Assembly (NCBI GenBank): GCA_030867685.1 | Contig: JAQOWU010000007.1 | Coordinates: forward strand, 1,674,001 to 1,738,000 | Reading direction: 5' to 3' | DNA from: Wickerhamiella versatilis | Taxonomy: Eukaryota | Length of the DNA stretch: 64,000 nt | In this document: positions 2,251 through 62,878 of the stretch, piece after piece | Numbering within the stretch: the first letter of the stretch is position 1 | Layout of the letters: the number at the start of each line of letters is the position of its first letter | The notes under the pieces: model-generated | The model's input: only the letters and a program-made list of their open reading frames with translations | The model's database searches: none | Told to the model about the DNA's origin: nothing | Program-made: the position numbers and the translations under genes

Positions 2251-3426
2251 CTAGGAAGAACGCAGGAATGAACCTATGATATTCATAACTGTACGGCTAG
2301 GCACGAACCCTGCATTTGCTCCAATAGTGACCAATCTTCGATCGACCTCCTCTTTACATACATATTGTTTTGGTATTTCATAACGTCGTCCATAAGCATC
2401 AAAATATCGGCAATCTAGCATTAACACCACTGCCACAGCTAACTCAAGATCGCCAGCAATTTCTCGAATATGTGAATTTTCAAACTGTGTGCAAATGGTA
2501 GATAGGTGCGATGCTAAAAGTTTTGCCCCCTTTTTACCAGATGGAAGATGGGTGATGTCGACAGACTGAGAGCTCGAGAATTCATTGCTTGCAGCTAGCG
2601 ATTCCGTGAGCTGCAGAATAATTTTACACCTGGTTTCAGAATTTTCTAACCCATTTAGCCTTTCCTGAAGGACCGTGTCACTAACGAGCTCTCGCAATTC
2701 CACTCGACTCCACAGCAATTCGGGCGTGAGAGAACCAGACCACATCTCGTGATCATCCGCAGCACCCTGGACATAAAAGAATCCCTTAGGGGTGATTTGT
2801 CCGTCACTCATTTTTTTTGAGACAGTACACAAAACCACTGGCATGAAACTGGTGAACTCAGGTGTTTCAGCAGGCAAGCAAGCATCCGGGGTTACCCATA
2901 ATGGACGCAGAGGTTTGGATAAAGGCTTGATGTTGGGCACCAAATCCCGAAGCTTTACCACCCACTCATCCAAATGCTGCGAAATTTGATCCTTCTCACT
3001 GAATGAAACTACCTGAGGAGGTACAAATACATCACCGTAATCATCAAATCCCCAATAACGATTGAGAACTGCACACCAGATGGGAACCGTCTTTGAAAAT
3101 GCATCCGGCATCCGCTTGCCTCTTCGAGTAGAGTCAATCATTACAATACCATTATGTTGCTCTATCAATGGGAGTAAATGAAGATTAAGCCTGCGGCAAC
3201 TAAAATTCCATTGTCCCATGTGGCCATCCGTACTCTTAAAATAAGCATCGGAAACTCTGTGTCCTGGTGGCACATACCAAACACCACAGCGTTTATTAGG
3301 AATTAAAGGTAATCCATATGCCTCTTCCACAGCAAGCGCAAACTCTGCGTCTTCGATAATACTTTGTATCCTATTTACTGGCGATCTTGATGCCTTCCCT
3401 AATTCTCGAGCACCAACATTAGTCAT
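2251..3426 (-). CDS. RIT1: Initiator tRNA position-64 2'-O-ribosylphosphate transferase
   Basis: NRIQSI.ED, PNKRCGVWY, AYFKSTDGHMGQWNFSCRRLNLHL, DSTRRGKRMPDAFSKTVPIWCAVLN, YVQGAADDHE. Start set at ATG 3426 (MTNVG), just before the conserved region. Confidence 0.93.
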   Translation of the reverse strand: MTNVGARELGKASRSPVNRIQSIIEDAEFALAVEEAYGLPLIPNKRCGVWYVPPGHRVSDAYFKSTDGHMGQWNFSCRRLNLHLLPLIEQHNGIVMIDSTRRGKRMPDAFSKTVPIWCAVLNRYWGFDDYGDVFVPPQVVSFSEKDQISQHLDEWVVKLRDLVPNIKPLSKPLRPLWVTPDACLPAETPEFTSFMPVVLCTVSKKMSDGQITPKGFFYVQGAADDHEMWSGSLTPELLWSRVELRELVSDTVLQERLNGLENSETRCKIILQLTESLAASNEFSSSQSVDITHLPSGKKGAKLLASHLSTICTQFENSHIREIAGDLELAVAVVLMLDCRYFDAYGRRYEIPKQYVCKEEVDRRLVTIGANAGFVPSRTVMNIIGSFLRSS

Positions 3427-3443
3427 CCAGCGAGTGGTTCGCC

Positions 3444-4532
3444 ATGGGTCGACGACAAGAGTACATTGCTCGTGTACGGTACCATAACCAGCTACCGCCT
3501 CCACCATGTGCACCAAAGGCACTTAAATATGGCAATGATATCTCACATTTGCTTACCGCAGCCAGCCTCAGCTCCGTTGTCTTTCGATCTGAGCTCCAGC
3601 CAGAACCGGATATGGACCTCGGTGTACCTCTCGACCTCACAGTGATACCAGAGGCGTGGGAAACGAATGAAGGCGGATACCGACCGGAAGCTCCCGAGGA
3701 ATTAGAACCAGAAGATGAGGAGCTAATGGTCGAGCCCAACGCTGGTGCCAAAGCAAGTTCCACAGTAGCCGCATCAAAGGCATTCCTAAACAAAAAGGCC
3801 ATACATATGGGACCTAGTCTTGCAGCCCCCAGCGCGTCTGCGAAAGCAAAACTTCCAACTGATAATGCTGTATTTGACTCCGAAGCTGCTCTACGTAAGA
3901 TAGAGCAAACATTTGATGATGCACACGTTCCACTGGGTGAGCTAAAGCACCCTAAGAATCCAAAGGCCAAGGCTGTGAAGGCCTTGCCGGTATTCCCTGA
4001 TATTCAGCAGTTCGACTTGACGCACCTCAATGTACGGCTCGTTGGTAGTGCAAGCCTGCGGAATCTACCCCAGCCAATACCACGGGATAGCCTAGAGGCC
4101 TCGCTTTTCCAGCATGCACAACGAGGCGAGAATGAGTGGATGGGATTCTTTGTGCCAAATTCGGGAGAAGAGGCAGAGCGACTGCGCAAAAGACTTACCG
4201 ACACCCGTGATACATTGCCTGCACAGGATCAGGAAGCGGAAGAGGCAGAAATCTTCGAGCTGCATAAAATTCAAGATAATGAAATCGATTTTGCGTTGCA
4301 CAAGGCTGACTTGGAGGAGATATCAATCAGTATTGACGATGAGGCGGCCTATTACATTCCTATTGCAGGCCGTACGAATTTAAAGAGGAGAAGAGTTGAC
4401 CCAGCGCTCAAGGACATTCTGAGGAGTGCCGAAGTTGACAGAATAGACCTAAGCTTACGGGAATCGAATCCGGAAGAGTCAATTGAGCGAGACAAGGCAA
4501 GATCACGATACGACCCTGTTACATATGGCTAA
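3444..4532 (+). CDS. PAF1: RNA polymerase II-associated factor Paf1
   Basis: RQEYIARVRYHNQLPPPPCAPK N-terminus, DLGVPLDL, IEQTF...LKHP, AYYIPI...LKRRR. Confidence 0.93.
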   Translation: MGRRQEYIARVRYHNQLPPPPCAPKALKYGNDISHLLTAASLSSVVFRSELQPEPDMDLGVPLDLTVIPEAWETNEGGYRPEAPEELEPEDEELMVEPNAGAKASSTVAASKAFLNKKAIHMGPSLAAPSASAKAKLPTDNAVFDSEAALRKIEQTFDDAHVPLGELKHPKNPKAKAVKALPVFPDIQQFDLTHLNVRLVGSASLRNLPQPIPRDSLEASLFQHAQRGENEWMGFFVPNSGEEAERLRKRLTDTRDTLPAQDQEAEEAEIFELHKIQDNEIDFALHKADLEEISISIDDEAAYYIPIAGRTNLKRRRVDPALKDILRSAEVDRIDLSLRESNPEESIERDKARSRYDPVTYG

Positions 4533-4678
4533 TGAAATATTATACACCTCATTCTATCCTCGGTAATTTTGACAAAATAGTTTATCGTTGATGTTACCCT
4601 TACCCTATGTAATTCCGGCTAAGTAAACAAGAGACTTCAACCCCTTTCTTCTAGTTAACCATCGCAGTGGGGAGAACA

Positions 4679-5554
4679 ATGGAAACATCTCTCTTGCAAG
4701 AACTACGACATTATTTAATGGAGACGCATCTGCCTTCTGGTAACTGTTCGGATCCCTACTGTGCAGGAACACGGTCGGATCTCGCTCTGGCTGCTAAGGT
4801 AGGCCAGTCCCTCCTCACACAACTAATGCAAGCGGAAGAACGATTCAAGAAGGCAGAGCATGGACATGAGAAGGAGCTGTCGCTTTTGCGGCATGCGAAT
4901 TACCGGCTCACCCTAGAGAATGAAAATTTGGAAGCCGAACAGCAGCATCTTTATCTTACACTTCAAAACCATGACGATGAAATCAAAGAGCTGAATGAGG
5001 AGCTTCGCCAAGCCAAACGAGATGCTTCCCGATTTAGACGGGCACTTGACTCGGCGCGATCATTGGAAGAGCAGGTAACTCTACTTGAGAAAATGCAAGA
5101 AGCAACCCAACGAGAGCTTGATAATAATCTGGTTGCAACTAGGCTGCCTAGCTCTAGGGTGACTGAATTGGCGGCAGAATCCATAGCGAGCAGGGTCCAC
5201 AGAATGGCTGCAGACCTGGGTCCCCCTTCCGGCTCCGATCCCGACGAAACGCTGGTAGAGGATTCAAGCTTCACAATATCGTCACCAATATATTCAAAGC
5301 CAAAACTTCAACGATCAATGTCTCATGAAAGCGTGCTTGCACCAATGGCCGAGGATATCACCCGTGATACGTCGATACAGAGACCACAGACTTCTAAGGC
5401 TGTCGCTGGACTCAGTGGACATAGTGCGACCGCAAAACCCCTCTCAAAATACCCAATTAATGCTCGTGACCATCTATTGTCTAATGTAAAGGGCCAACCG
5501 CATGCAGATAAATGGTCTTTCGTTCCATTTCGTCGTTCAGCACGAATGGTGTAA
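4679..5554 (+). CDS. Uncharacterised coiled-coil protein with CC1-box-like motif (DLALAAKVGQSLL)
   Basis: 291-aa ORF from ATG 4679: heptad-rich E/Q/L/R segment of about 115 aa, then an S/P-rich tail containing RSMSHES. Confidence 0.7.
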   Translation: METSLLQELRHYLMETHLPSGNCSDPYCAGTRSDLALAAKVGQSLLTQLMQAEERFKKAEHGHEKELSLLRHANYRLTLENENLEAEQQHLYLTLQNHDDEIKELNEELRQAKRDASRFRRALDSARSLEEQVTLLEKMQEATQRELDNNLVATRLPSSRVTELAAESIASRVHRMAADLGPPSGSDPDETLVEDSSFTISSPIYSKPKLQRSMSHESVLAPMAEDITRDTSIQRPQTSKAVAGLSGHSATAKPLSKYPINARDHLLSNVKGQPHADKWSFVPFRRSARMV

Positions 5555-5678: not shown

Positions 5679-7871
5679 TTAGTTATCCCAATTCCTTCGG
5701 AAAATATTACCCCTAACATGTGAAGTCTTCACAACAGGTCTCGGAGGTTTGAGTTGAGGCATCACACGCCTCGGTCGGGATTCTACTGGCTGGCGTGGTC
5801 TACTTGTTGATTTCAGGATTTGGACAGTTTTTGGTCCAGAGGGTGCGAGCTCCGACTGAATTCGCGCGACAGACCTACGAGGAATATTAGGTACTTCTGG
5901 GGGTGGTGCAGCTTTAAGAGACGGGAGTGGCCTAGCTCTTGGCAATACAACGCTCTCTTCCATAGAAAGTGGGCTATCATCTGTAGTTGACATATGATCA
6001 GCCGGCTCTATAAATTTAAGAGATTCATGAATGCTGGCAACGTCCACTGCCTTTGAAACAGCAGCCTTTGGCTTTTTCACAAAGCTGCCTGTGCAGCTCT
6101 CAAAGAATGCACGATTTTTCGGGTTGGCGCTTATTCTTGTCGGTTTGATGAAACTCCTGTCGTTATCTTTCTTCAGAGAATGGACTTCATGCTTTCTCTT
6201 TCGAGATTCTTGTTGAACATAATCGACAAGATGTTCTACAGCACTTTCACTGAGTTGCTTCGCCGGCTTGTCATTATCACTGGGAGGGTTAATATTATCG
6301 TTAACTCCACCAACCTCAGTAGCGTCACCTACCCCATCTCCAGGAGATTTTGGAGACTGCGCTTCGTCCTCCTCGCTTTCGTCCGAATCACTTGAATCAT
6401 CTAGTACCATTCTCTTCTTGCTGGGGGAAGATCCCTTGGCTTGTGAACCAACATTAACTTGAGTGGGTGGGGTTTGTTCGTTCTCCGACTCATTTATATC
6501 TTCTGACCGATCCTTCTCACGTTCCTGCCTGATAAGGAAGAGCCTTCTAACCTCTGCAAGTTCCTGGGATCCTGTAAGACCCATCTCCTTGATTTTGTTC
6601 AAGTCTTCCTGAGTTTCATCGCAGTGTCTCCTTGAGTGCGACTGCTCTTGTGATTGCTCTTGTGACTTCCCTTCTTTTGAAGGAGTGGGTTGCGTTGGTG
6701 TCTCTAACTCCAAGTCTTTTTCCTGAGAAGAGTCCTGGAAGATAGGAGGCGGTTGGTCCTTATCTGCATCGGCATTGGCGTCTGCTCCTGCTACTGCTCC
6801 TGCCTCCGCATTGTGACTGTGGGGCAATGTATCCGGTTCAGAAACATCCGGTACATATTTGTCTGCTTCAGATCTAGCCAAATCAGTGGTAACCTGGCGC
6901 TCATGTTCAAGCAGCGATTTCATATTACGAGGGGGGTTCGGTGGCTGTAAATTTAGCTCCCGCCTTGCCCTCGACTGATCTCTCTGCTTTGACAATAATT
7001 GGCTCGTTAGATCACCAACATTCATAGGCATTTCATTTTGTTGCCCAAGAATAACTTGATCACGCTGAGCAACATTCATACGGGAGGCCTCTGTCGATGG
7101 AACAATCTCTAGGTCATCACCACTAGAATCCGAATCACTTTCTAAACCTTCGGCCATCGATCTGGGAGGAGAACTAGCGACGTAACTCGTCAAATGCTGC
7201 CATTGGGGTAATCGAGGAGTAATAGGTTTGGCCTTTTTAGGCGTTGGTGGAGGTGTCCTTTGGCCGAGAAGGGATGCAAATCCTGAAACTGTTGCTTCAG
7301 CGACTGTGTGTCGCGACACATGTACACCAATTTCTCGCTCTAGCCTATGGTTGACACGTTCGATATCTTCATTTGCCTTATGAGATTCGTAGGAAGTCGG
7401 TCTTTCAGTTACTTCTTCTGGTCGGTCAATGCCAGCATCCGCATACACCCTATCACGTTCATTTAAAGGGGCTTCCAAGTGGTCCGATTCGGCATCTGAA
7501 AGCCATAGACCTGCATCATTTGCACTTGGCGCACTCTCAGACTGCTTAGGCCTAGTTGCTTTGGGACCAGGAATGAGTTTCTCCCCATGGCCAACAGCTT
7601 CACCGTAAGAATCATCAGAGCCCTTCTTCCCCGGGCCATGGCTCAAAAAATCATCATTATTTTCATCAATTAAGTCGTCAATATCCTCCTCTTCATCCGC
7701 ATCTTCATCTTCGTTTCCCTGGTTTTCATTTAATGGACCTGCGACTTGGCTTTGAGTTACTCTCCGTTGTATAAACTCATCATAATCGAAGTCCTCCTCA
7801 TCCAAATTTTCATCATCCTCATCAAGTTGTTTCAATAAATCATCCAGTCTACCAAAATTAGCCAAAGTCAT
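5679..7871 (-). CDS. MRC1: Probable replication checkpoint mediator Mrc1/Claspin-like
   Basis: Acidic, disordered 730 aa with clustered SQ/TQ sites; NPKNRAFFES resembles the Mrc1 C-terminal motif; MCB/SCB boxes lie immediately upstream. Confidence 0.6.
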   Translation of the reverse strand: MTLANFGRLDDLLKQLDEDDENLDEEDFDYDEFIQRRVTQSQVAGPLNENQGNEDEDADEEEDIDDLIDENNDDFLSHGPGKKGSDDSYGEAVGHGEKLIPGPKATRPKQSESAPSANDAGLWLSDAESDHLEAPLNERDRVYADAGIDRPEEVTERPTSYESHKANEDIERVNHRLEREIGVHVSRHTVAEATVSGFASLLGQRTPPPTPKKAKPITPRLPQWQHLTSYVASSPPRSMAEGLESDSDSSGDDLEIVPSTEASRMNVAQRDQVILGQQNEMPMNVGDLTSQLLSKQRDQSRARRELNLQPPNPPRNMKSLLEHERQVTTDLARSEADKYVPDVSEPDTLPHSHNAEAGAVAGADANADADKDQPPPIFQDSSQEKDLELETPTQPTPSKEGKSQEQSQEQSHSRRHCDETQEDLNKIKEMGLTGSQELAEVRRLFLIRQEREKDRSEDINESENEQTPPTQVNVGSQAKGSSPSKKRMVLDDSSDSDESEEDEAQSPKSPGDGVGDATEVGGVNDNINPPSDNDKPAKQLSESAVEHLVDYVQQESRKRKHEVHSLKKDNDRSFIKPTRISANPKNRAFFESCTGSFVKKPKAAVSKAVDVASIHESLKFIEPADHMSTTDDSPLSMEESVVLPRARPLPSLKAAPPPEVPNIPRRSVARIQSELAPSGPKTVQILKSTSRPRQPVESRPRRVMPQLKPPRPVVKTSHVRGNIFRRNWDN

Positions 7872-7902: not shown

Positions 7903-8435
7903 TCAAACTAATGATTAATAATACTGTAAAGGTACTTCCACCAGACATACAATTTCACTAATCTCTGGATCGCAAGGAGCCAGCCTACTTTGATTCATAC
8001 TGTAAGATCTATCACAGGATGTCTGATGGTATGATCATGAGCTCTCTTCGAAAAATTAAACGAAAAAGAATACAGGCGGAACCGCATCTAAAACAACTAT
8101 CTGAAGGATAAACTACTAGCATATTGAGTCACATCAAGTAAAGCTAGTAAATTATTCCCACTGTGAGCTTTTCCAACAGTAAAAGACTTGATCGTTACGC
8201 CAGGAAAGTGTCTAAAGATTTCTAGACCCCCAGCACTTATATGAACAGCATAGTCAAAGTGATCAAACACTCCTGAAATATAACTTTGAAATTGCTAGCC
8301 ACCTAAGGTACCTTTAATTCCAGTTTGAAAACTCTCCACAACTACGAGGAAACCTAACCACGTTGAGTCATCATATCTTCAAGTGGCGACAACTATAAGC
8401 GATATTTGTCAGCAGACTTTCGAGACGCCTAGGCA

Positions 8436-19423: not shown

Positions 19424-19879
19424 GCTACGGAAACGAGCAAGAAGGTGCAATGTATGCTTATCTTATCATGACTGCCTAAGTGCGACATCGCACCATCGAA
19501 TGTCTCTGTTTTGCTAGACTTAAATTTGGAACGGGTCAATAAAATTCATCTTCAAGGTCGCCAGTATATAAAAAAACTAAAAAGCTCGACATCGTTGATA
19601 AAGCGTTTATTATTAGTAGTATTAAGATGTTGTCATTTATTCTAATCAATTTACTGACAAATGAAGAACTACGTATTCGCTATACCATCACAGCCACCGG
19701 CAAACACTAGCTTGAGTATCGGAAAATTCTGCTGTTTACAGCCTATAAATTGCCATAACCTAGTTTTTCCCTTTGTTTAAACTGTATTCCTATGACTTCC
19801 TAACCCGCGTTCTCGTGGCTGACATATTCACACATCAACTTCAACGAAGGGCGCCCGGGATACGTCAGAAGCTTGAAAA

Positions 19880-26202: not shown

Positions 26203-26222
26203 CCTTTTCAAGCAAAAGTGGA

Positions 26223-36183: not shown

Positions 36184-36186
36184 TTT

Positions 36187-41680: not shown

Positions 41681-41864
41681 CTTGCATTTCTTAGATCTGG
41701 GGAAACTGCTAGGTGACTAATTAAAAAGTTTCAGTTATCCTCCGACCGGGTCGCCACTTTTTATCAGATTAGTCAGTTATATCAAGCTCTTAGACATCGA
41801 TAGATCCATCTCCGAGAATGTTATACTCTGTGAGACACAATTAATTAGAACTAGGGAAACTACA

Positions 41865-43163: not shown

Positions 43164-43831
43164 ATGCTTCGTTAGCTTGGTAAGTCTGGTGAGGATACGC
43201 ACCTCGTTGTGTTGGGCACCCTAGCCCAGTGAGATCTGTTTGAGTAGTGTTTTTTCACCATGTCTTCGAACAGCGTAAATCGATAAAACTAGGCCAGTAT
43301 TTTCAGCTTGTACTTACCAGAATCTCATTCATTGTTCCCTCTTTCATTGGGATGGTCTGACTTTAAGGTGGATCTAGATATTTCTAAACACTCCTCGCGT
43401 TAGGGCATTTGAGCAGCTTGGCTTTAGCCTTATGCCCTGCATTTCAAGAACTTACTCATGTGAATCATTTATTTGGCTATAGGGAATTCTGCAGGGGTAT
43501 TTCGCAGATTAGAGACGATGAAGAGTGCGGGATCACCAAGCACCTATCAACCTCAAGTATTATTTATTCAGGAATATTCTCGACTAAGAAACGGTATCAT
43601 CAATTTTTCTCTCAAATTCTTGTCTAGGATGGTGCACTCTATCTATCACATCTCAACTATCTGCCTAAAGTATAGCATCTAGCTCGGGTAATAGCTACCC
43701 TGCTAAATTCCATCCTACAATTCTTGAGACAATTGCTTTATCGTACATTACAATGATGCCATAGCTGATGGGTCTCATATTGCAAAAATAATCGACTCGA
43801 AGTCTGTCAGCCCGGCGTCAGGCAAGTCAGC

Positions 43832-46759: not shown

Positions 46760-46836
46760 GGCGGTAGTTGATCGTTAACTTTCGGCCTGGACCTGGCAGG
46801 ACGTGCGTCGCTTGGGTGCTGGGTGATTACCTCATA

Positions 46837-46850: not shown

Positions 46851-46906
46851 TCCAAATCGAAAGATTTCTAAGCGAGAGGTTCAGCCTGGAGGGTTTCCAA
46901 ACAGGC

Positions 46907-47146: not shown

Positions 47147-47334
47147 TCCACACAGAATGCATAGAGACAGCCATGCGGCACATTTTTCACTTCTTGTTTG
47201 CTTGGTTGTTTATTTTTTAATTTTTTTTTCTTTTTAATTGCACGTCAAAAATCTTGTGCGCAAGGTAACCGTACATTTTTTAATATTATTATTGAATAAA
47301 TATACTATAAATAATGCTAATTTTCACGATTTTT

Positions 47335-48501: not shown

Positions 48502-48521
48502 CCCCTCGTGACTAATAGTCA

Positions 48522-49133: not shown

Positions 49134-49194
49134 ATTTATAATGAGTAAAATATTGGTAGCATTTGTGGCTTAAATATATGTACAATGGTGAATT

Positions 49195-49848: not shown

Positions 49849-50182
49849 GCACTTTATTGATTACTCACAATTTGGCAGACTATTCTTGTACGACTTTTAT
49901 GATGGTGTAATAGTGCTATATGACATATAAAAGAAACTATTAATCGAATAATAGGAAAAATATAAAGCCAAGGTTTTTTTTTGGTTGTAAGGATCAACTT
50001 ATACTCCAGTGTATGTGGTTGCATGTTTTTTCAGTTCAAGTTCCCAAGGTTAGCAGATTTCAAAAGAGCTAGAATTGAAATTTAGTTGCTAAATCATGAA
50101 GAAAAGCTGGTTTTATTCGCCAAGGTATAAACACCAGTACCGTAGTTGACTCAGCCTAGCCCGATCGATCTAGCAGGGTAGG

Positions 50183-52810
50183 ATGCGAAAGAATGCTTTC
50201 GCGGGAACGCTTAATCTTCCCCGCTCTATACTCCCTAACCGATCGAATCGGAAGAGAGTTCCAGAGTTACTAAAAAAAACCGGTGAAGAACTTTACGCTT
50301 GGCAGAAAAAGCAGTTTGGACACCAGAAGCCTTATGTGCTGCATGATGGTCCCCCGTACGCCAATGGGGCATTACATTTGGGTCATGCCGTGAACAAGAT
50401 TCTTAAAGATTTCATAAATCGGTATAATGTGCTTGCAGGCTGTCATGTTGAATACAAACCGGGATGGGATTGCCATGGGTTACCGATTGAACTTTCCAGT
50501 CTCAAAAAGCATAAGCCAAAAACATCGACGGAACGTAGGAAGGTTGCCCGTGAGTTAGCTTCTTCCATGATAGTCCGCCAGATGGAGGGTTTCAAAGGAT
50601 TTGGCGTCATGGCAGATTGGAACGATATTTACCGCACTATGGATACCGAATATGTTGTACGGGAATTGCGGGTTCTTGCGGAGTTGGCAAGAAAAGGACT
50701 AGTGTTTCGCGAACGTAAACCTGTATATTGGTCGGTTGAATCTGCCACTGCGCTTGCTGAATCTGAGCTCCAATATGGTGAGCGCAAGTCGACTGCCGTC
50801 TATGTAGCTTATCCTATCAAAGAATCATCGGATGAGAAGCTAGTTATATGGACAACGACGCCTTGGACATTACCAGCAAACCAAGCTATCGCTGTAAATA
50901 AAGATATGAATTATGTTCTCACGGGCGATAACTTGATTGTGGCTGAATCCAGACTTGACACAGTAGGGGGAAGCATCAAGAAATATATTAAGGGGTCAGA
51001 ACTAATAGGTATCCAATATCTCTGCCCCTTGCGTGGTACCTATCACTCTGTTGTAGCCGGTGACCATGTAACCAGTGACACTGGTACTGGCCTTGTACAT
51101 ACAGCCCCTGCTCATGGTAAGGAAGACTTCGCTTTAGGGCAGCAATGCGGCCTTGCTACACACTCGCCCGTAAATGAAAAGGGTCGTTATTTTGGTGACG
51201 AAATTCCCAAAGAACTTGTGGGCCTTGATGCACGGACAGAAGGTCAAAGCAAAGTCTTAGAGTTGCTTAAACCCTCAATTCTTAAGGTTGAGTCGATAGT
51301 GCATTCTGTTCCCTTTGATTGGAGGTCCAAGACACCTGTTATGATCCTCGCAACTCCCCAATTTTTTATAGATTTGGGACCATTCAGGGAAAAAGCTATC
51401 GAGGCGCTGGATAACGTAGAATTTAAACCCCAACAGGGTAAGCAACGACTTACTGCCTTTGTTCAGAGCCGCACGGACTGGTGTATTTCTCGACAGCGAG
51501 TCTGGGGTGTACCAATACCTGCATTTTACAAGGATGGAAATTGCATTTTCAGTCCTGAAATTATCGAGCAAGTGGCATCGAAAATAGAGGCTGATGGATC
51601 GGCACTGGAACGTTGGTTCGACCCCTCAGATTCTCCAAATGAGTGGGTTTCCTTAGATGGGTCTGATTGGCGGAAAAGCCAGGACACGTTGGATGTTTGG
51701 CTAGATAGTGGTACTTCATGGACACAACTCTCGGAGACGCCTGCCCAGTATTACCTAGAAGGTAGTGATCAGCACCGAGGATGGTTCCAGAGTTCTCTGT
51801 TGACACACGTTGCAGTGAAAAGTCGCCCAGAGGCTCCGTTCCGAGAACTGATCACGCATGGTTTTGTACTTGATGAAAACCGGCAAAAGATGTCCAAGTC
51901 TTTGGGAAATGTTGTGGCCCCCGAAGATCTAATAAAGACTTTGGGAGTAGATGGATTGCGTTTGCTTATAGCTCAATCGGATTATACTGCTGATATTTCG
52001 CTGAGTGACACCGCTGTTCACCAGGTGGCATCAAATGTGAAGAAATTTCGATTAAGCTTCAAGTATCTTTTGGGCAATCTAATGGACTATAAGATTCAAG
52101 ACCAGGTGGAGCTGAATGAGCTAGACAAGCATGCCCTCACAAACCTCTCTGTGCTCGTTCGCCAATGCCTTGACGCCTATAAAGAGCACAGGTTCAATTA
52201 CGTTGTAAAATATCTCCAAGCTCATATGAACAGTTCACTTTCCTCCCTGTATTTCGATGTCGCCAAGGACATATTGTATGCTGATGCAGTGGATTCCCCT
52301 GCGCGAAGGGCCATACAATATGTGCTGCATACAGTATTGGATGTTTATGTCCGACTATTGAGTCCTTTAATGCCTCTCTTAACCCAGGAAGTATGGGAAC
52401 TGTGCCCACCTACAATTACCAAAAATTTGGCTTCTCCAGCAATGGCTGGATGGCCAGGTGAAATAGCCAAATTCCCTGAAGAGACTAAACTAGTAGATCG
52501 GCTGCTGGAGTTAAGAACTCAATCTAACGAGGCAATTGAACTTGCACGTTTGGATAAGCGGGTGGGTTCCTCCTTAGCATGCGACGTCATCGTACCATCA
52601 TCCCTGCAAAAACACCGAGCCCTTCTGGAGCAGCTACTCATAGTTTCCAATGTCTCCATGTCCTCTGACCCTCAGCCATCTTTTGAATGGAGCTATAATG
52701 TGGGGGATGTAACAGTTGCTCCTGCTCAGTCGCACAAGTGTCCAAGGTGCTGGCGTTTTGCCTCACCAGAGGAGGATAAGCTCTGTGCAAGATGTGAGCA
52801 TGTTTTGTAA
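50183..52810 (+). CDS. ISM1: Mitochondrial (bacterial-type) isoleucyl-tRNA synthetase
   Basis: LHDGPPYANG.LHLGH, PGWDCHGLPIE, WTTTPWT, WCISRQR.WG, EGSDQHRGWF, KMSKS, C-terminal CPRCW...CARC zinc finger. Confidence 0.95.
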   Translation: MRKNAFAGTLNLPRSILPNRSNRKRVPELLKKTGEELYAWQKKQFGHQKPYVLHDGPPYANGALHLGHAVNKILKDFINRYNVLAGCHVEYKPGWDCHGLPIELSSLKKHKPKTSTERRKVARELASSMIVRQMEGFKGFGVMADWNDIYRTMDTEYVVRELRVLAELARKGLVFRERKPVYWSVESATALAESELQYGERKSTAVYVAYPIKESSDEKLVIWTTTPWTLPANQAIAVNKDMNYVLTGDNLIVAESRLDTVGGSIKKYIKGSELIGIQYLCPLRGTYHSVVAGDHVTSDTGTGLVHTAPAHGKEDFALGQQCGLATHSPVNEKGRYFGDEIPKELVGLDARTEGQSKVLELLKPSILKVESIVHSVPFDWRSKTPVMILATPQFFIDLGPFREKAIEALDNVEFKPQQGKQRLTAFVQSRTDWCISRQRVWGVPIPAFYKDGNCIFSPEIIEQVASKIEADGSALERWFDPSDSPNEWVSLDGSDWRKSQDTLDVWLDSGTSWTQLSETPAQYYLEGSDQHRGWFQSSLLTHVAVKSRPEAPFRELITHGFVLDENRQKMSKSLGNVVAPEDLIKTLGVDGLRLLIAQSDYTADISLSDTAVHQVASNVKKFRLSFKYLLGNLMDYKIQDQVELNELDKHALTNLSVLVRQCLDAYKEHRFNYVVKYLQAHMNSSLSSLYFDVAKDILYADAVDSPARRAIQYVLHTVLDVYVRLLSPLMPLLTQEVWELCPPTITKNLASPAMAGWPGEIAKFPEETKLVDRLLELRTQSNEAIELARLDKRVGSSLACDVIVPSSLQKHRALLEQLLIVSNVSMSSDPQPSFEWSYNVGDVTVAPAQSHKCPRCWRFASPEEDKLCARCEHVL

Positions 52811-53010: not shown

Positions 53011-54852
53011 ATGCAGGTTCGCTGGGCGAGCCACTTTTCGCGGAAGCGTAAAGTTCGCCTGAGAGTCCCTGAGAACTGGATTCCTCCCTGGAATAAGTTC
53101 GTGAAAAAAGAAAACCTTGTTCCCCCGCAGCCCAAGTCTTCGAAGGAATCTTCAGAACAGGGCGAGAGACCTGCTGTAGTTATTGACGAGAAAAACTTAA
53201 AAACTGAAGCTGTCGATGTCCCAAAGCAACCAGAAGTGCCGCCACTGGCCAATAATTTGGACCGTGTTTTGTTTTCCCCAGGTATTCACTTTATGAAAGA
53301 TCCTCGGACAAATGTGTATAATTTTGATCCAGAGCTTGAAAAGGTTGTATCGATAAAAGACTTTGATTTTGGCACTATAGCACCCTACGTTCCAAGTGGT
53401 AAAGACAAAAAACTTGCCAAGCTTACCAATGAGAGAGGGAAGAAGTATTTTGGATCCACTTCAAGCCTGACTCCAGTGTTAAACCAATTGCACCATGCTA
53501 TTTCAAACAACAGGCCTCCACAAATTATGGGACTGTCTAAATACTTTCCTGGGCATACAACGAACTTTACGAAGACACAGAGAGCACCCATTTCTATGTT
53601 TCTTCGGAAAATGCCTGACACCAATGTGTGGACCGTGGACCAAGGCACTGTCCCTGGTGAGTCTAATGATTTGATTGTTTCATTGCTGGGTCATGCTCTG
53701 GAGGCAAAGTTGACCACTCCGGCAGATGTGTTTCGATATTATACGAAGGACCAAAGCCATCTACTGGATCAAGAAGACAAAAGTCTTGAGAGTACGTATC
53801 ATTATACCACCTGTGGAAATTTTCTCATGCGATCACAGTTGGACTGTTTTGATCCTCGTCTACCTGGTACTGGCATGTTTGATCTGAAGACTCGGGCTGC
53901 CACAGCAGTGCGCTACGACTTAGATTGGGCCCAGATTAGAGATGGCTCACATTATCAGATTCTCAAGCGAGGTGGCCATTATGAATCTTTTGAACGTGAA
54001 TATTATGAGCTTATAAGAAGTGCAATGTTCAAGTACTCACTTCAAGCTCGAATTGGCCGAATGGATGGAATTTTTATTGCATATCATAACATTCGTCAAA
54101 TTTTCGGATTCGAATATGTGCCACTGCTTGAGATGGACAAGATATTCCACACTGCTCATCTTCTCTCCACCCCCCGCGCACGAGCAGATCCTGAGTTGGA
54201 TGAAAAGATGGCCGAGGCCGCTCCTGTTATCGCAGAGGCAGAATTCAGGCTCTCTCTTGGGGCACTTGAAAGCATTCTGGATCATGTCCTGGAACGACTA
54301 CCACCTTCTTCACTCTATGACCTAGTCTGCCACTGTTCTGCTCCTGGTGAACTCCTTGTTTTTGCAAAACCAATGGAACGCCTCGCACACCCTGATGAAA
54401 CACCAACAGTTGAAGGCTATAGTAGCGCAAGAGATCCCCATACCATAATCCAGCACCATACAGCACATCAATGGCTTCCACCAGATGTTGTGGCTTTCAA
54501 GATTGAATTACGTTCGTTGATCAATGGTAAGCATGTACCTCTGTCTCTTTTCCCTATATTTAGTCCTCAGGACAGTTGGTGTTTAGAGGTTACTCCAAAG
54601 GAGCTGGATGGTACGGAAGCTAAAACAAGACTTAATGAGACTATGGCACAACTGGTTTCACAAACGTATATATCTTCCCCAGTGACCGAAAGACTTGACA
54701 ACGATGAGAAACGGGTTGCGGACTGGCTGGCCCAGCTCCCGGAAGCCTCGAAATTGCAAGCCTTACTCCGAAAATTAGAGGCTAAGGGGGAAAAGTATCT
54801 AAAGTGGGATGCAACGAGAAAGAAAATTTTGCTTAGGCCGCCTACTAAATAG
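53011..54852 (+). CDS. PET127: Mitochondrial RNA 5'-end processing nuclease Pet127
   Basis: LDRVLFSPG, DPRTNVYNF, MRSQLDC.DPRLPGTG.FDLKTRA, KYSLQARIGRMDGIFIAYHN. Confidence 0.95.
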   Translation: MQVRWASHFSRKRKVRLRVPENWIPPWNKFVKKENLVPPQPKSSKESSEQGERPAVVIDEKNLKTEAVDVPKQPEVPPLANNLDRVLFSPGIHFMKDPRTNVYNFDPELEKVVSIKDFDFGTIAPYVPSGKDKKLAKLTNERGKKYFGSTSSLTPVLNQLHHAISNNRPPQIMGLSKYFPGHTTNFTKTQRAPISMFLRKMPDTNVWTVDQGTVPGESNDLIVSLLGHALEAKLTTPADVFRYYTKDQSHLLDQEDKSLESTYHYTTCGNFLMRSQLDCFDPRLPGTGMFDLKTRAATAVRYDLDWAQIRDGSHYQILKRGGHYESFEREYYELIRSAMFKYSLQARIGRMDGIFIAYHNIRQIFGFEYVPLLEMDKIFHTAHLLSTPRARADPELDEKMAEAAPVIAEAEFRLSLGALESILDHVLERLPPSSLYDLVCHCSAPGELLVFAKPMERLAHPDETPTVEGYSSARDPHTIIQHHTAHQWLPPDVVAFKIELRSLINGKHVPLSLFPIFSPQDSWCLEVTPKELDGTEAKTRLNETMAQLVSQTYISSPVTERLDNDEKRVADWLAQLPEASKLQALLRKLEAKGEKYLKWDATRKKILLRPPTK

Positions 54853-54858
54853 TATATA

Positions 54859-57800
54859 TTATACATATGCCTTCGGCACATAGTTACTTACAGAGATCAA
54901 AACCGTGAGGTTTCGGGCAAGCTGCGAAACATGAGACTCAGCAAGCGAATGTGCGGCAGCATCAGCTTTCAACACAGTAATGATTCTCTGCGAATGTCTG
55001 CCCAACAGCGCCTGCGCCTGGGTAAGTGTTTCGCCATTTTCAGGACCCATGGCCACAACAACGGCAGTGACTAGCTGGGTCACAAGAAGGAGAACGTCAT
55101 TCTTATCAGCCAAATGATCCAACACAGAGAAAATGCCGCTGTCTACCAAAAATAGCGCACCTGCTCGTGTGTGTGCTACAACCATTAACAAAGACAGCGT
55201 CACCTTTGCAACGGAGCAGTCATATGCTACGTTCATATTCAGCCCGCTCAGTGACTCTACCAGTAACCGAAGCAGGTTGTATCTCACTAATGCCGTGAAT
55301 ACGAAGTCCTCACCTTCATGTTCTGCCATCGCAGCAAGTGTCTGCAAAAATATAAGAGATACTAAGCGCAAGGATCCATCTTCACCCTCGAAAAGTGCAT
55401 CCCCGCACACTGTCTGTATTAAGCGATCTCCTTGATAATGAATTGCCCGCAGTTTTTCTGTATCTCCAGAGCTACGGAGTATTTGATAGCAAATGACATA
55501 TAAGTCTCGCCGCAGTTGAGGTACATAGGCTGCAGGCTGAATTGACAATAATGCAGCTTTAAAGAGTGAGTGCAGACGATCAGATGGTCCTTTATAGTGC
55601 TCGAGTAGCAAGACAATAAGACCAGCAAGCGGTCTTGCGAATGCAACATCAGCAATTGCATATTCAACAAGTTTTGGTGTCAGAGTCTGAATCGTTTCCA
55701 GTACGAATGTAGAGCTCGTTGTCTGTCCCACGAGGACAGGAACCAATTGACACCAAGCTCGCAGACAACTCAGCTGAGTGGAGCTTAGAGTCTTGAATTT
55801 CATGAAATCCAAGTAGCTGAGAATTGAGCGTCTCCGCAAATCCATTAAAGCCTTCATATAAGCCTGTTCAGCACTCAAATGCGTCTGTTGAGCACAAACA
55901 TGTACTTCTATGCTTAATATAATAAGCAAATCGGCTCTGTGGGTAAAGAAGCTAGCAAGATCATCTGAGTCCGTCTCAGGACTGACGACAGGCTCGTAGG
56001 CCAGAACCTGTAGCAGGAAGTCTGACTTACGCAACATGTCCAATACTAAAGTCTGGGAGGCGCGATCTTGAACTAAGAGCGCAAGTACACGGGTTGTAAG
56101 ACGAGCTGTTACTGCTGCTTCTGCAGGTACCAGGTCAGCACTCATTTCTCCAAGGGATACCTGCAGAAGTTCACAAACAGCAGTCAACAACGATGAGCCA
56201 GTGGCAGCGCCACCCACGCTTTCATCCAAGGCTAAAGAGTCTCTATTGACGCAGAAACCAAGTAAATGATGAGCAGTAGTTAGTGGCTCAGAGCGGCCTA
56301 CACAACTTTCTAGGTCTTCAACCAAGAACTCTAATATGGCTACCCTCACCTTGGAGTAACGGTCCTTGAGCTGCTGAATCCAATCAAAGCGGATACGGCC
56401 AGCTTCCGTGACCGATGACAATATACTCAGTATGCGGGATTGACGTGTCACTGTCGCCCGGAAAAGTGGAGAACGTTGCAACTGTCCTAAGAGTTTGGTA
56501 GAAGCCAAAGCAAGAGTTTCGTGTTGCGTTGACACATATAGAGCCAAATAAGGAACCACCTGTAGATTATACAGCACAAGTTCATCATAGCGGCTTGGCT
56601 TTCCGTTGCGAGGCTCTAAAAGAGCACTTAACAATTTGACTGTTGCGGTTACCAGTTGAACTGCTGGATGGCTATCTGTCAGCTCACTGAGCCGATCAAC
56701 ATCGGTGGCTAGTACTCCAAAGAAAACCTGAGCTACTGGACGTTCGCAACAATCATCAGCAACGTGAGGCAAATCGTCAAGGTGCGCTCGAATTAGTGAT
56801 ACACAAAGCAGTGTCAATTCGGTTGTCGGCGCATAAGGTAAAATTTCCTTTTGAATAAAAGTTACATATTCGTTCAAATGGGGACCTGAACAAGTATTGG
56901 CAAGGACTTGAACAAGCTCAACAAATGATGTCACTTCTTCCACTGTGGAGAGCATTTCGGTAAACCGAGGGCGCAGAGGCAACGAAAGTTCTTCACCAAA
57001 TGCCCATTTATCTAGAGCCGCCCAATCGGTAGGTTTCAATGCTGCTAGTGCACTGAGAACAGCGGAAGTCAGCAATGTTTTTGACTGTAAAAGTTTCCAT
57101 AATACCGGAGCAAATTTCGTCGAAAGAGCTGGATTTTCGGTCTTTTTAGCCACTTCTGTAAGTAGTCCCAGATAGGCACTGAGCACCAATAACGTATCAT
57201 CATCTAAATTTCCAGATTCAGACGATAGCTTCTGAAGATAATAAACGAAAACATCATGCATGCTTTGCCAGGAAAGCACCCATGTCTTCTGTGGGGGCTC
57301 GCTGTTAAGGAATGCATCCGCCTCGGGGCCTGCAAAACTAGAAAGCATCTCTGCGAAAGTTGCAGCCATAAAAGTTGCTTGACACTCAGCACCCCAGGCA
57401 AGAAATCCCAATAGGGAGCTTCCATCTTTCCACCATTGATCCGTCTTGTACACTCGGAATATGGCAGCAACCAGTAAGAAAAACCGCTCGAGGTCCTCGC
57501 CTGGGCCTTCATCAGGAGGTTGTTCACTAGATAACGCAAGATACGTATCCTCTTCATTAAGCCTCATTTCTTTCAAAATATCAGCCAAATTCTCCACGAA
57601 GGCCTGTGTTGTCAAGACAGAAATTTCGAAGATATGTTTGACAAGCATGAAATATATAGAACCATCTAGTTGAGGAACCCTTGAGCGCACAAGATAATCA
57701 TATTTATCAGTAATACCACTAGACTGATTGCCAGCATCCTCAATCAGTGCGAGTAAAAATTCGAGACCACCTTCATCAATTGCTCTACGAACAGCAGGTA

Positions 57801-58665
57801 GACACTTTCCATAAAGTTCGTCACTAGCTGAGACTCCACTCAAATGAACAACTTCCAACGCTGCTCTCCACCAACTAAGTTTCCACTTAGACCGCAAGGT
57901 CTCGTTGGTCATTGTTGGTAGAGCCTCAGAGTGACCGAAGAGAAAACGAGCTAGTGCAGGGAAATAGGAAATCATCTGGGTCGTATACCTTTCAAAAGAA
58001 GCAGCATGATCTAAAACAGGAACAATTGTGTCTAAAGTAGCCCAGTCTGCTACTACAACACCGTAAAACACAGTCCCCAGGAGCGCATGTTCTCGCAGCA
58101 AAAAGTCTTTTTCTAGAGCTATCAAGGCTGATCTGTCAACTCCAGTCAATACACTGCGTTTTGCTTTCTCCGAGAGATCCTCGATAGCCTGCTCAACAGC
58201 TCGAAGTGCCCCAGAAACCTGGCCCACCGGGTCCGGCCCTAAACAGTTCTTCGCGATATCACGAAGGTCATCTAAAGCAAGCAAAAATCTCAGGGTATCG
58301 ATAATATACTGTCTTCTCACGAAAAATAGAGCCACAGCTGCTTCGAGACCAGTAACAGCAAGACGCTTTGCATCATCCGCACTCCAAAACACCAGGTGTG
58401 CAGCTGCCACTTCGTCAATCTGAAGCTCCTCGGATACTTGTGCCGCGGTATCCAAGAACTGTTGATTCAAGCTGTATTGTTCTCCTTCAATTTCAAGTAC
58501 GCGTTTTGAAAGAAGAGAACGAGAGGCGTCGTTACGTGGTGGTACTGCCACTAATTCACTCAAGTCGTCTTTGAGCGGCTCGAGCTTTGAACGGAGTTCT
58601 TCAACATCTGCATCGCTCTCCACAGCTGTTTGGAAGGCCACAAATTTGTCTAGACTCCATCTCAT
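54859..58665 (-). CDS. NUP192: Inner-ring nucleoporin Nup192/Nup205, shortened
   Basis: YSLNQQF....QVSEELQIDE, DILKEMRLNEED, DLERFF, GFLAW, TTAHHLLGF; leucine-rich alpha-solenoid. Start set at ATG 58665 (MRWSL); the longer ORF-track start overlaps RRD1. Confidence 0.85.
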   Translation of the reverse strand: MRWSLDKFVAFQTAVESDADVEELRSKLEPLKDDLSELVAVPPRNDASRSLLSKRVLEIEGEQYSLNQQFLDTAAQVSEELQIDEVAAAHLVFWSADDAKRLAVTGLEAAVALFFVRRQYIIDTLRFLLALDDLRDIAKNCLGPDPVGQVSGALRAVEQAIEDLSEKAKRSVLTGVDRSALIALEKDFLLREHALLGTVFYGVVVADWATLDTIVPVLDHAASFERYTTQMISYFPALARFLFGHSEALPTMTNETLRSKWKLSWWRAALEVVHLSGVSASDELYGKCLPAVRRAIDEGGLEFLLALIEDAGNQSSGITDKYDYLVRSRVPQLDGSIYFMLVKHIFEISVLTTQAFVENLADILKEMRLNEEDTYLALSSEQPPDEGPGEDLERFFLLVAAIFRVYKTDQWWKDGSSLLGFLAWGAECQATFMAATFAEMLSSFAGPEADAFLNSEPPQKTWVLSWQSMHDVFVYYLQKLSSESGNLDDDTLLVLSAYLGLLTEVAKKTENPALSTKFAPVLWKLLQSKTLLTSAVLSALAALKPTDWAALDKWAFGEELSLPLRPRFTEMLSTVEEVTSFVELVQVLANTCSGPHLNEYVTFIQKEILPYAPTTELTLLCVSLIRAHLDDLPHVADDCCERPVAQVFFGVLATDVDRLSELTDSHPAVQLVTATVKLLSALLEPRNGKPSRYDELVLYNLQVVPYLALYVSTQHETLALASTKLLGQLQRSPLFRATVTRQSRILSILSSVTEAGRIRFDWIQQLKDRYSKVRVAILEFLVEDLESCVGRSEPLTTAHHLLGFCVNRDSLALDESVGGAATGSSLLTAVCELLQVSLGEMSADLVPAEAAVTARLTTRVLALLVQDRASQTLVLDMLRKSDFLLQVLAYEPVVSPETDSDDLASFFTHRADLLIILSIEVHVCAQQTHLSAEQAYMKALMDLRRRSILSYLDFMKFKTLSSTQLSCLRAWCQLVPVLVGQTTSSTFVLETIQTLTPKLVEYAIADVAFARPLAGLIVLLLEHYKGPSDRLHSLFKAALLSIQPAAYVPQLRRDLYVICYQILRSSGDTEKLRAIHYQGDRLIQTVCGDALFEGEDGSLRLVSLIFLQTLAAMAEHEGEDFVFTALVRYNLLRLLVESLSGLNMNVAYDCSVAKVTLSLLMVVAHTRAGALFLVDSGIFSVLDHLADKNDVLLLVTQLVTAVVVAMGPENGETLTQAQALLGRHSQRIITVLKADAAAHSLAESHVSQLARNLTVLISVSNYVPKAYV

Positions 58666-58732
58666 GTCCCCCTCTGCCTCTCTGACGTAACGTAATCTCT
58701 GCCTTAGAAGAACAACAACACAGAATGCAACA

Positions 58733-59617
58733 ATGCAACCAGTCAAATTAATCAATGATGGAGCAGACATGGATGCATTTAAAGTCTCAAGTGCACATGA
58801 ATTACTTCGCAAGATCTTGGATTCTCTTGCAGCTTCGGTATCCGGCCTAGAAGTCCCTGGTAACAATGAAACCAGTAGTACTGAAATTGCCGCTATAATC
58901 AAGACTATTTCAAGATGCTCCCAGCTTGTGGATCAGATAGAGCCGAAAAGTGAACCTCAAAGGTTCGGCAATACTTCATTTCGTGAATGGTGGTCGGGTC
59001 TGGAGCCGATTTACGACGATGTCATGGCACCCTTAGGTTTGTCGACAGAACTCAAGCATTATTTTATAAATTCTTTTGGAACGCCGAGCCGCATTGATTA
59101 TGGAACAGGACATGAGCTGAATTTCATGGCATGGTTTGGCGGCTTGTTGCTGACCGACCATGTCAAAAAGACAAAAGGTGAAGATATTCTCCGCGTATTT
59201 TCAAACTACTACGACCTCTGTCGAAAAGTCATCAGGCGTTACAATTTAGAACCAGCAGGTAGTCATGGTGTTTGGGGCCTGGATGATCATTTTCATATTG
59301 TGTACATATTAGGTGCATCCCAATTGACACCAACGTCAATGGATCAGGGCCAGGAAGTCACTCCTGCATCAGTGCTCGATCGCAAGTTTGTGAAAGAGCA
59401 TTCTCGGACGAATTTATATTTTGGCGCTATCAACTTTATTTATGAGGTTAAACGTGGACAGTTTTTCGAGCACTCACCAATCCTGTATGATATAAGTGGC
59501 GTTGCGTCATGGTCAAAAATCAGAACAGGAATGATTAAGATGTATGAGGCTGAGGTGTTTAGCAAGTTCCCTGTAATGCAACATTTTTGGTTTGGCTCAA
59601 TATATAAATTAAAGTGA
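58733..59617 (+). CDS. RRD1: PP2A phosphatase activator (PTPA) Rrd1
   Basis: [63 protein letters not shown]. Confidence 0.88.
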
Positions 59618-61682: not shown

Positions 61683-61806
61683 ACCCTTTTGTTAGGTGAG
61701 GCGGAGTAAGTTCTCTTGATATTTATGAGAGGCTATCTATGCATATATAAGAAAAAATAAATAATCTACAGAGGTTCCCATATTATATTTTGTTGTAGCT
61801 GTAAAT

Positions 61807-62811
61807 TCAAGGCCCCTCTCCATTATGGTCCGGGTTTGTTTTCTCCGCAGACTCTTCTAATTGAATTTGCTTGAGCGCATAGTCTAGAAAGTTTTGATTG
61901 AACAACGGTTCACGAATTGGTGGCCTGATAGGAATAAACCAGGACCATATCGGGCCCATAACTTCCCTTATATTTGGCCATTTACCTGTGTAAAACATGG
62001 AAGGTTTAGGGAAGGATATATCGGTTTTTGCCGGATTGAATACCCTTCGCTCCCCGTTAATCCACGGCACGTTGACATGTGGCAGACGATTTTCACGTAA
62101 AGCTAAGTGCTCTATAGTAGTATGCCCCGTCAAAGTATATCCGATATGCTGGAAAATAAGAGGAACTACGAATCCAAGTGAAAGGCCGATTAATATATAA
62201 AGTGCAATGATATTACCATTAATGTGTGAGCCGTGCTCATATATAAGCAACGACACAAGCATCAGGGTAAGAATCAAAAATACACACCATGCGAATTGAA
62301 GGAAAAACTTCAGATTTCCTTGACCGATCACAGCAGCGAGCCAAGGACAGAAGTGGTCCATTACGGGGACGCATCGGTCGAGGTGGCCAGTATGATGGGT
62401 ACGAGCTGGTTTTATACGTTGGCAATTAAAACAATAAAGTGCGTATCCCTGCGCATCACAAAGAAAAGCATCGTTAGGCCCACTTCGCTCATAATCATCT
62501 GTAATCGTTCCTGGTCCCCAAATGTGGATTGCTGCCCAAGATATATATAAATGCGCATTAAGCCACGAGAAGAGAACAAGTATAGCAATAGCAGCTCCTC
62601 TATTGCGAGGCTCAATACGACGCCAGACAGCAAGCCATCCAAAAGCGTATATAAAGTATCCATTTACGCCCACCACTATGAGTGCCACTACCCAGGGACA
62701 ATTATTTAGAAAGTCCTCCGCAGAACGGATTCGCTTGGCACGAAGAAAACATTTGACGACATCACGCTTCTGCGATTTGGCCTTTTCAGGCCGCTGCCCT
62801 TCCGCAGACAT
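61807..62811 (-). CDS. PFA5: DHHC-family palmitoyltransferase Pfa5-like (DHFC variant)
   Basis: FLCD..GY..YC..C..IKP.RTHH, CVPVMDHFCPW, KFFLQF, TTIE; four TM segments. Start set at ATG 62811. Confidence 0.8.
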   Translation of the reverse strand: MSAEGQRPEKAKSQKRDVVKCFLRAKRIRSAEDFLNNCPWVVALIVVGVNGYFIYAFGWLAVWRRIEPRNRGAAIAILVLFSWLNAHLYISWAAIHIWGPGTITDDYERSGPNDAFLCDAQGYALYCFNCQRIKPARTHHTGHLDRCVPVMDHFCPWLAAVIGQGNLKFFLQFAWCVFLILTLMLVSLLIYEHGSHINGNIIALYILIGLSLGFVVPLIFQHIGYTLTGHTTIEHLALRENRLPHVNVPWINGERRVFNPAKTDISFPKPSMFYTGKWPNIREVMGPIWSWFIPIRPPIREPLFNQNFLDYALKQIQLEESAEKTNPDHNGEGP

Positions 62812-62878
62812 GTAAACAAGTAGTATAAGAAAGTTATATGACTCAGCAGCCGTAGACCGGTAAAGCACAGGATATACA

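Follow-up and report, generated by a model that had tools for sequence, protein, structure and literature searches.

Yap response elements, which serve Yap1-8 of Saccharomyces cerevisiae, Cap1 of Candida albicans and Pap1 of Schizosaccharomyces pombe, comprise the words TTACTAA (YRE-O), TGACTAA (ARE), TKACAAA and TTACGTAA (YRE-A), and the consulted parts of the source present them as upstream parts of stress and metal regulons, with one example at −414 (PMC6545440). The sites of the general regulatory factors Reb1, Abf1, Rap1 and Cbf1 lie upstream of the transcription start in many unrelated promoters; the repertoire of these factors shifts between yeast lineages, with novel motifs in Yarrowia lipolytica, and the consulted parts of the study name no bZIP protein among them (PMC2897762; Tsankov 2010). 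In a stretch of 64,000 nucleotides of the Wickerhamiella versatilis genome (C7:1674001-1738000 of 9.88 Mb in eight contigs; hereafter the window), a motif of the form TKASTMA recurs beside the start codons of unrelated genes, and an original prediction made from the window's letters took it for an AP-1/Yap-like site through which a bZIP protein may act as a general, orientation-independent promoter factor. The element resembles Yap response elements in its words, in its inverted half-sites with a 1- or 2-bp spacer, in its orientation independence (here of occurrence only) and in the presence of cognate Q/F-type basic regions in the genome. Unlike known Yap elements, it is found in 27-50% of promoters at distances of up to about 45 bp from the ATG, overlaps the transcription start and is purged from coding DNA. 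It shares with the general regulatory factors a single abundant, position-biased and orientation-free site that recurs across many unrelated promoters and is avoided by coding DNA, and differs from them in lying at the start. The Yap-type site is thus probably a broad promoter signal in this lineage, beyond a stress switch.

The positional peak sought by the original prediction was examined in a held-out set of 80 stretches of 10 kb each, spaced evenly outside the window (800 kb; 59 on C8 and 21 on C7), the other contigs entering solely through whole-genome word counts. Gene calling with a Markov model gave 454 genes with starts at the first ATG, and 343 ATG starts and 317 stops with full flanks and a score of at least 15 were kept. 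The sampled DNA is 74% coding, its genes are nearly all single open reading frames (ORFs), and median intergenic gaps are 265 bp for tandem, 341 bp for divergent and 158 bp for convergent neighbours; short mean intergenic distances and mostly monocistronic transcripts are described for the clade in the consulted part of 10.1101/399394. Of the 343 starts, 68 have TKASTMA in the 60 bp before the ATG, against 14.2 ± 3.9 (maximum 28 in 200) in dinucleotide shuffles, and this lifts the concern that the motif had been defined post hoc. The first 60 bp after stops showed no enrichment (10/317 against 15.7). When 7-mers within 100 bp of the ATG were compared with distal non-coding DNA, TTACTAA ranked first (35 against 11, 9.8-fold) and TGACTAA second (33 against 13, 7.9-fold), followed by GTAAGCA, AGTCAGC, GTCAGCA and GCTGACA, and the two leading words were also top among their own 140 and 420 anagrams (28 against means of 5.5 and 3.2). 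Counts within 60 bp of the ATG, relative to those per 60 bp further upstream, were 28 and 0.7 for TTASTAA, 28 and 3.6 for TGACTAA/TTAGTCA, and 13 and 0.7 for TTTGTCA; TTACAAA (1) and sense TGACAAA (3) were not raised there. The part of PMC6545440 consulted lists the enriched words as Yap1 elements. Because TGASTCA, the AP-1/Gcn4 word, shows no enrichment (5 in the 60 bp next to the ATG and about 4 in each 60 bp beyond; 5 against 2-4 per 50 bp), the Yap half of the earlier label stands, with a 5' G[CA] flank added, and the AP-1 half falls: judged by its words, the element is a Yap-type site and not a Gcn4/AP-1 site, except where the GC flank is present.

Expectation-maximisation (EM), started from three seeds on the held-out promoters, gave the consensus (T)G[CA]T[TG]A[CT][TA][AT]A, a matrix of 6.7 bits whose log-likelihood was 98-117 on real promoters and 21 on shuffled input. 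Cross-validated by locus, the matrix detects a strong site (at least 8 bits) in 109/343 promoters against 6.2% of shuffles, and the excess above shuffles rises from 18% of promoters at 9 bits to 27% at 8, 38% at 7, 46% at 6 and 52% at 5. Half of the strong sites start between the quartiles −41 and −21, with the median at −30. They occur in 62 of the 80 stretches (78/255 promoters on C8, 31/88 on C7), and are single in 103 promoters and double in 6. Their orientation is sense in 48 cases and antisense in 61, and in the 273 promoters of unambiguous direction both orientations are enriched (30 and 16 against 4.0 and 2.8). Inverted TKA half-sites exceed shuffles at a spacer of 1 bp (90 against 29.8, with a central C/G) and 2 bp (55 against 30.1), and are not raised at spacers of 0 and 3 bp. 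Among other candidate signals in the held-out promoters, Reb1, Abf1, Rap1 and poly(dA:dT), scanned with consensus patterns, had no ATG-proximal peak, nor had CCAAT, and the HomolD word was not enriched (4/343); TATAWAW peaked near the ATG (36 against 13-20 per 50 bp), and the Cbf1 and CGCG words did so weakly.

Within the window, all 15 words named by the original prediction were found where it had placed them, its nine TKASTMA sites lie 6-33 bp from ATGs and serve 11 of the 32 called promoters, and its rough estimate of about one chance match was right, 500 dinucleotide shuffles giving 1.15 ± 1.0 promoters with a maximum of 5. The window holds 21 TKASTMA words in total, about half of the 40 ± 6 expected from base composition, and 12 of the 21 lie more than 60 bp from any called ATG. 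On the window, which contributed nothing to its training, the matrix reaches 8 bits or more in 17/32 promoters, those with sites including RPB1, PAF1, TFB3-like and TIM22. Pfam matches agree with the earlier gene labels at family level; for SSN3 they identify a kinase and no more, and nothing in Pfam matches its partner. The sites and related features are as follows.

2167..2176: newly found matrix match before a longin-domain gene (ATG 2133, − strand), 9.4 bits
3419..3425: TTAGTCA, 18 bp before the PAF1 ATG (3444), its opposite strand overlapping the likely RIT1 start codon (3426), 9.4 bits
8364-8370: TGAGTCA in the RPB1 promoter, a Gcn4-type word of the non-enriched class
8405..8414: TTTGTCAGCA, GC-flanked TGACAAA type, in the RPB1 promoter, 11.4 bits
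15381..15389: GCTGACTAA before a BRCT gene (DPB11-like, ATG 15363, − strand), 11.9 bits
19818: GCTGACA, an earlier-listed word with verified coordinates, 56 bp upstream of the kinase gene at 19880
19861..19870: matrix match before the kinase gene at 19880, 8.7 bits
26223..26235: double site TTAGTAAGTCAGC before a YCF1-like ABC transporter gene (ATG 26202, − strand), 10.8 bits
29904..29913: newly found matrix match in the promoter of an AVL9-like gene, 9.7 bits
33505..33514: newly found matrix match in the promoter of an RGP1-like gene, 9.6 bits
35761..35770: GGCTGACAAA (− strand reading) before an IML2-like gene (ATG 35742), 10.1 bits
37811..37817: TTAGTAA before TIM22 (ATG 37828), 8.7 bits
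37813, + strand: TIM22 transcript 5' end at the third base of TTAGTAA, from adapter-bearing loose ends, leaving a 15-nt 5' untranslated region (UTR)
41714..41720: TGACTAA before a PPR gene (ATG 41680, − strand), with a second site at 41769-41775
43805..43811: TGTCAGC, a weak GC-flanked half-site before the RING-ligase gene at 43832, 6.6 bits, a score reached by more than 13% of shuffled promoters
48509..48515: TGACTAA between the head-to-head ATGs 48501 (kinase, SSN3-like) and 48522
49861..49867: TTACTCA with a GA flank before an MRPL11-like gene (ATG 49848, − strand), 10.1 bits
50147..50155: TGACTCAGC before an ISM1-like gene (ATG 50183), 8.0 bits
58683..58690: TGACGTAA, the 2-bp-spacer form, between NUP192 (likely ATG 58665) and an RRD1-like gene (58733), 7.9 bits
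59653..59662: newly found matrix match in the promoter of a DEAD-box helicase gene, 9.3 bits
62839..62847: TGACTCAGC, common to the head-to-head DHHC gene (62811) and TFB3-like gene (62879), 9.3 bits

Two of these placements depend on the choice of start codon. RIT1 probably starts at its second ATG (3426), 17 bp from the PAF1 ATG, since in the longer ORF the Pfam domain is matched only from about residue 38 onwards; if so, the TGACTAA site at 3419-3425 overlaps its first codons. The apparent overlap of NUP192 and RRD1 (58665-58770) probably reflects a wrongly called start, as the profile for Nup192 sets in at residue 38, and the ATG at 58665 would leave a head-to-head gap of 67 bp. Each of the window's four close head-to-head pairs has a single central site, and a strong site is present in 7 of 10 held-out head-to-head pairs 10-120 bp apart, a number compatible with a bidirectional role but too small for more. 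The special tie to tiny bidirectional promoters that had been proposed found no clear support: TKASTMA occurs in 6/37 promoters of divergent pairs less than 100 bp apart and in 11/43 of those more than 700 bp apart.

Coding DNA also avoids the element. In a test set of 381 held-out ORFs (502 kb), TTACTAA/TTAGTAA is the lowest-ranked of 8192 7-mers, with 8 occurrences against 53 in synonymous shuffles, and the depletion is strand-symmetric (5 against 27 and 3 against 28). TpA content and codon context were ruled out as its source by stricter controls, which gave 8 against 31 when codon context was kept and 8 against 28 under a frame-aware Markov model, and by 52 anagrams with two TpA steps, whose median coding ratio was 0.97. 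Genome-wide, TTASTAA occurs 959 times and the reversed word 1928 times. Comparison fungi were drawn from a metagenome scan by ERG13 alignment, which yielded 80 fungal loci, none above 62% identity and therefore no close relative for footprinting; 43 loci of at least 8 kb were scanned and the 15 with a coding density above 0.45 were summed, a weak control with possible introns or longer UTRs. In these 15 gene-dense loci, a small outgroup, a 9-bit site lies near the ATG in 1 of 101 ORFs, and TTACTAA is not depleted (13 against 9.9) across 71 kb from six loci of other yeast-like fungi, likewise a small sample. The second most depleted coding 7-mer is TTAATAA, the Yap8 core according to the consulted part of PMC6545440, yet it lacks promoter enrichment (4 and 3 against 3.1 and 3.5); a role in termination or polyadenylation is possible.

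Transcript starts were sought by aligning RNA reads of runs X8, X11 and X12, together with X1 contigs, to window positions 35001-51000, which hold 11 genes. The reads carry the same species label but derive from another strain, differing from this segment at 438 substitutions in 16 kb (2.7%), a wide divergence for a single label. Loose read ends bear what appears to be a template-switch adapter marking 5' ends. The TIM22 transcript begins within its site (38 reads in X11, 46 in X12), whereas the 5' ends of the ribosomal protein gene RPS8 (46769-46783, 10-24 nt 5' UTR) and of an ISH1-like gene (37316 and 37319, 17-20 nt) were mapped to promoters without a strong site. Pieces of X1 contigs, guessed to be RNA, extend 61 and 69 bp upstream of the ATGs of the IML2-like and RING-ligase genes, beyond their sites. 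In the held-out promoters, out-of-frame upstream ATGs are thinned out to about −50 and TATAWA is most frequent at −50..−41; the TATA-to-start spacing of 30 bp in Y. lipolytica, given in the consulted part of PMC7849388 (Lu and Lin 2021), therefore predicts starts near −20..−10. This TATA peak and the 10-24 nt UTRs fit the classic, non-scanning mode of initiation of Y. lipolytica and the fission yeasts, with TATA about 30 bp before the start, as described there. Taken together, these observations place the site at the transcript start or no more than about 20 bp from it on either side.

A search for readers of the site returned nine bZIP matches in the genome, four of which (L081, L083, L087 and L089) have a Yap-type basic region with Gln at Gcn4 position 239 and Phe at 242, the signature for such regions in the consulted part of PMC6545440. 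L087 is the Yap1 orthologue, with a PAP1 domain, six cysteines in two clusters and a Yap-type site in its own promoter, and L089, with a Hap4-binding motif, is HapX. L081 (1282-1743) and L083 (1303-1794) are short, cysteine-free KapC-like paralogues, 78% identical, whose relatives carry the source labels "putative transcription factor kapC" or Cin5; both have a conserved N-terminal IDPSFQ motif and a C-terminal PGG-P-PP motif that also occur in distant yeasts. L083 is 73-82% identical over its full length to nine close relatives. The nearest ERG13 matches, not necessarily of the same species as those relatives, stand at 89% for one and 67-72% for the next, the closest named one being Starmerella bacillaris (71%), in line with a position among the Wickerhamiella/Starmerella yeasts. 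The KapC-like bZIP appears, from similarity, to be conserved across the clade. The remaining bZIPs are presumably three Gcn4-like, one Atf1/Sko1-like and one Hac1-like protein. The Gcn4-like ones are L082, L085 and L088; L085 (C7:1847604-1847744) lies in an open frame of 224 codons whose first ATG yields just 45 residues. The families to which Cbf1 and Reb1 belong gave five bHLH and 15 Myb matches, and a Rap1 family search gave no match, although its own control means that absence does not follow.

HapX acts together with CCAAT. Yap1 orthologues are kept out of the nucleus by export until oxidised, according to the consulted part of PMC6545440. With Yap1 under redox export, HapX tied to a word without a peak here, and L081 and L083 cysteine-free and L083 conserved, the KapC-like pair is favoured as a constitutive reader; granted a Yap-family reader, the chances that this pair is the one, and not the Yap1 orthologue L087, seem about evenly balanced.

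What has to be explained is the element's position, frequency, two-fold geometry, strand symmetry and coding avoidance, and a transcript start inside one site. These, with the unrelated housekeeping genes that carry the site and the matching bZIPs of the genome, bear out much of the proposal of a general, orientation-independent bZIP factor. In a third to half of the genes, the start is probably served by a constitutive Yap-family bZIP in the role of a general promoter factor. A constitutively nuclear dimer would occupy the site, keep a short stretch at the start free of nucleosomes or recruit the basal machinery, and be displaced or tolerated when initiation by polymerase II takes place at pyrimidine-purine steps within the site or next to it. 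Inside a gene, a stray copy would create a cryptic promoter or obstruct elongation, and we propose that the word is purged from coding DNA for this reason.

Several points weigh against this account. Protein binding and promoter activation, a further part of the original proposal, are what we infer from sequence, and a protein sitting at the start would collide with the pre-initiation complex; the mechanism therefore needs an exchange. Published nucleosome scores from Y. lipolytica, a proxy species, seem favourable by themselves but are equivocal beside anagram controls: TTACTAA scores −0.53 and its anagrams −0.98, −0.60 and −0.43; AGTAAGC, −0.28 against +0.14; and TGACTAA, −0.35 against −0.27 and −0.09. 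At least 3 of the 11 genes have a mapped 5' end (24 of 259 loose-end rows), all from reads of another strain, and of these TIM22 alone has a strong site, RPS8 and the ISH1-like gene, both highly expressed, having short UTRs but best scores of 2.5 and 4.4 bits. The matrix is degenerate at its 6.7 bits, the upper promoter fraction hinges on weak thresholds, and the promoter starts are first-ATG calls. Half-sites with a 4-bp spacer are likewise above shuffle (43 against 26.9), for which the model has no explanation. In the held-out promoters, TATA boxes and strong sites do not exclude each other (odds ratio 0.67, p 0.5; other test, p 0.19), and a strong site is unlinked to a codon-bias proxy for expression (rho 0.07, p 0.17).

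A more specific form of the model, which we regard as doubtful, is that a small bZIP of the KapC group became a core-promoter factor, a single 9-bp site at the start position launching transcription in either direction 10-40 bp before the ATG. It would explain head-to-head genes 17-67 bp apart with one common site. The Wickerhamiella/Starmerella clade is known for horizontally acquired bacterial genes, for which such a site would mean cheap promoter gain.

If instead the sites formed a large yet conditional Yap1 regulon, bound by the redox-controlled orthologue under stress, their proximity to the ATG would follow merely from short promoters. YCF1, whose homologue carries the double site, is a Yap1 target in S. 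cerevisiae, and L087 has the expected domain, cysteine clusters and a site of its own. The words are moreover exactly Yap1 elements (PMC6545440, in the part consulted). We nevertheless hold such a regulon to be improbable, because promoters with more than 700 bp of space still have their peak in the 50 bp next to the ATG (18/76), because an excess in at least 27% of the 343 promoters, RPB1, PAF1, TFB3 and TIM22 among them, does not match a classical Yap1 regulon limited to redox, metal and drug genes, and because the coding depletion is the strongest of all 7-mers. A bound factor could also serve as a roadblock or insulator against read-through from neighbours or cryptic starts, without promoting initiation; the depletion on both strands fits this equally well, as does tight packing with a median tandem gap of 265 bp. 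Against this, stops lack enrichment and TKASTMA is equally common in divergent promoters, which receive no incoming upstream transcript, and in tandem ones (38/180 and 31/144 in a 70-bp window); we consider this reading quite improbable.

Reading of the sequence by the basal machinery, or at the RNA level, is less credible again. TTAGT resembles arthropod initiators, and TIM22 starts at T|A within TTAGT; initiator words are nonetheless at chance (TCAGT 21 against 20.9, TCATT 27 against 27.1, YYANWYY 170 against 192) with no strand-specific enrichment, and so is TTAGT without a second half-site (16 against 19.3). TACTAA and GCTGAC resemble fungal branch sites, but antisense sites are as frequent as sense ones, C follows sense TKACTAA in 4/26 cases only, and no splice joint, among the joints listed, crosses the seven earlier-listed sites in 35001-51000, although a very short first exon might go undetected. 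The words contain many stop codons, which might have marked them as upstream stops; they show no frame preference, and stop-free forms are enriched as well (TTTGTCA, and GTCAGC at 19 against 4.0). Word counts, orientation, joints and frame tests thus largely refute the initiator, branch-point and stop-codon readings, which together retain a very small probability. An artefact of base composition, post-hoc choice or ORF calling was a natural suspicion for a motif picked by eye, since coding frames exclude stop-rich words and first-ATG calling favours nearby stops. It is refuted by the unbiased 7-mer and anagram ranks, the held-out replication against dinucleotide shuffles, the cross-validated matrix with its gap in log-likelihood to shuffled input, and the near-absence of such sites before the ORFs of other fungi, and keeps next to no weight.

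The preferred reading, a Yap-family bZIP as a general promoter factor, joins familiar parts. Both the element's words and the bZIP family are well documented, and it is established that general regulatory factors turn over among yeasts (PMC2897762, parts consulted). The literature surveyed, largely without subscription journals, held no Yap site as a dominant, start-overlapping promoter element. The main text of PMC7849388, as far as consulted, names GA element, Reb1, Abf1 and Tod6 motifs, no Yap motif, and does not mention Starmerella; the eight shared motifs of its Supplemental Fig. S14 could bear on novelty. The CCC/GGG-like motif of microsporidia is comparable in its compact genome, very short 5' UTRs and ATG-hugging position, and differs in being three bases long, strand-specific, without a known reader and unrelated in sequence (PMC2803860, part consulted). 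If the preferred reading is true, the site family of a stress regulator has become the dominant promoter signal of a genome, at the start rather than upstream, and a conserved, uncharacterised fungal bZIP gains a function. Sequence-specific factors at or next to housekeeping gene starts exist elsewhere, in Drosophila Motif 1/M1BP, human YY1 and S. pombe HomolD, though their protein folds and sequences are different. The finding is relevant to how initiation is positioned at yeast promoters that lack TATA, still an open question. It also suggests a design rule for minimal synthetic promoters in a yeast clade with industrial uses and aids the annotation of start codons, and with four candidate proteins and several very short promoters at hand it is open to direct tests.

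Some further features were noted. The CG-rich words CCGCGCG, GCGCGCC, AACCGGG, ACGCCGG and CCGACCG are strongly depleted in held-out coding DNA, whose ATGs also have an excess of ACGCG words close by, a pattern that possibly reflects a second broad promoter factor. The stop codons of the PET127-like gene and NUP192 are 6 bp apart (54852-54859), and therefore each 3' UTR must overlap the coding end of the other gene. Window ORFs without a Pfam match lie at 4679-5554, 5679-7871, 21005-21547, 26810-27172 and 48522-49133, and RNA reads cover 48351-48884, reaching into the last of these.

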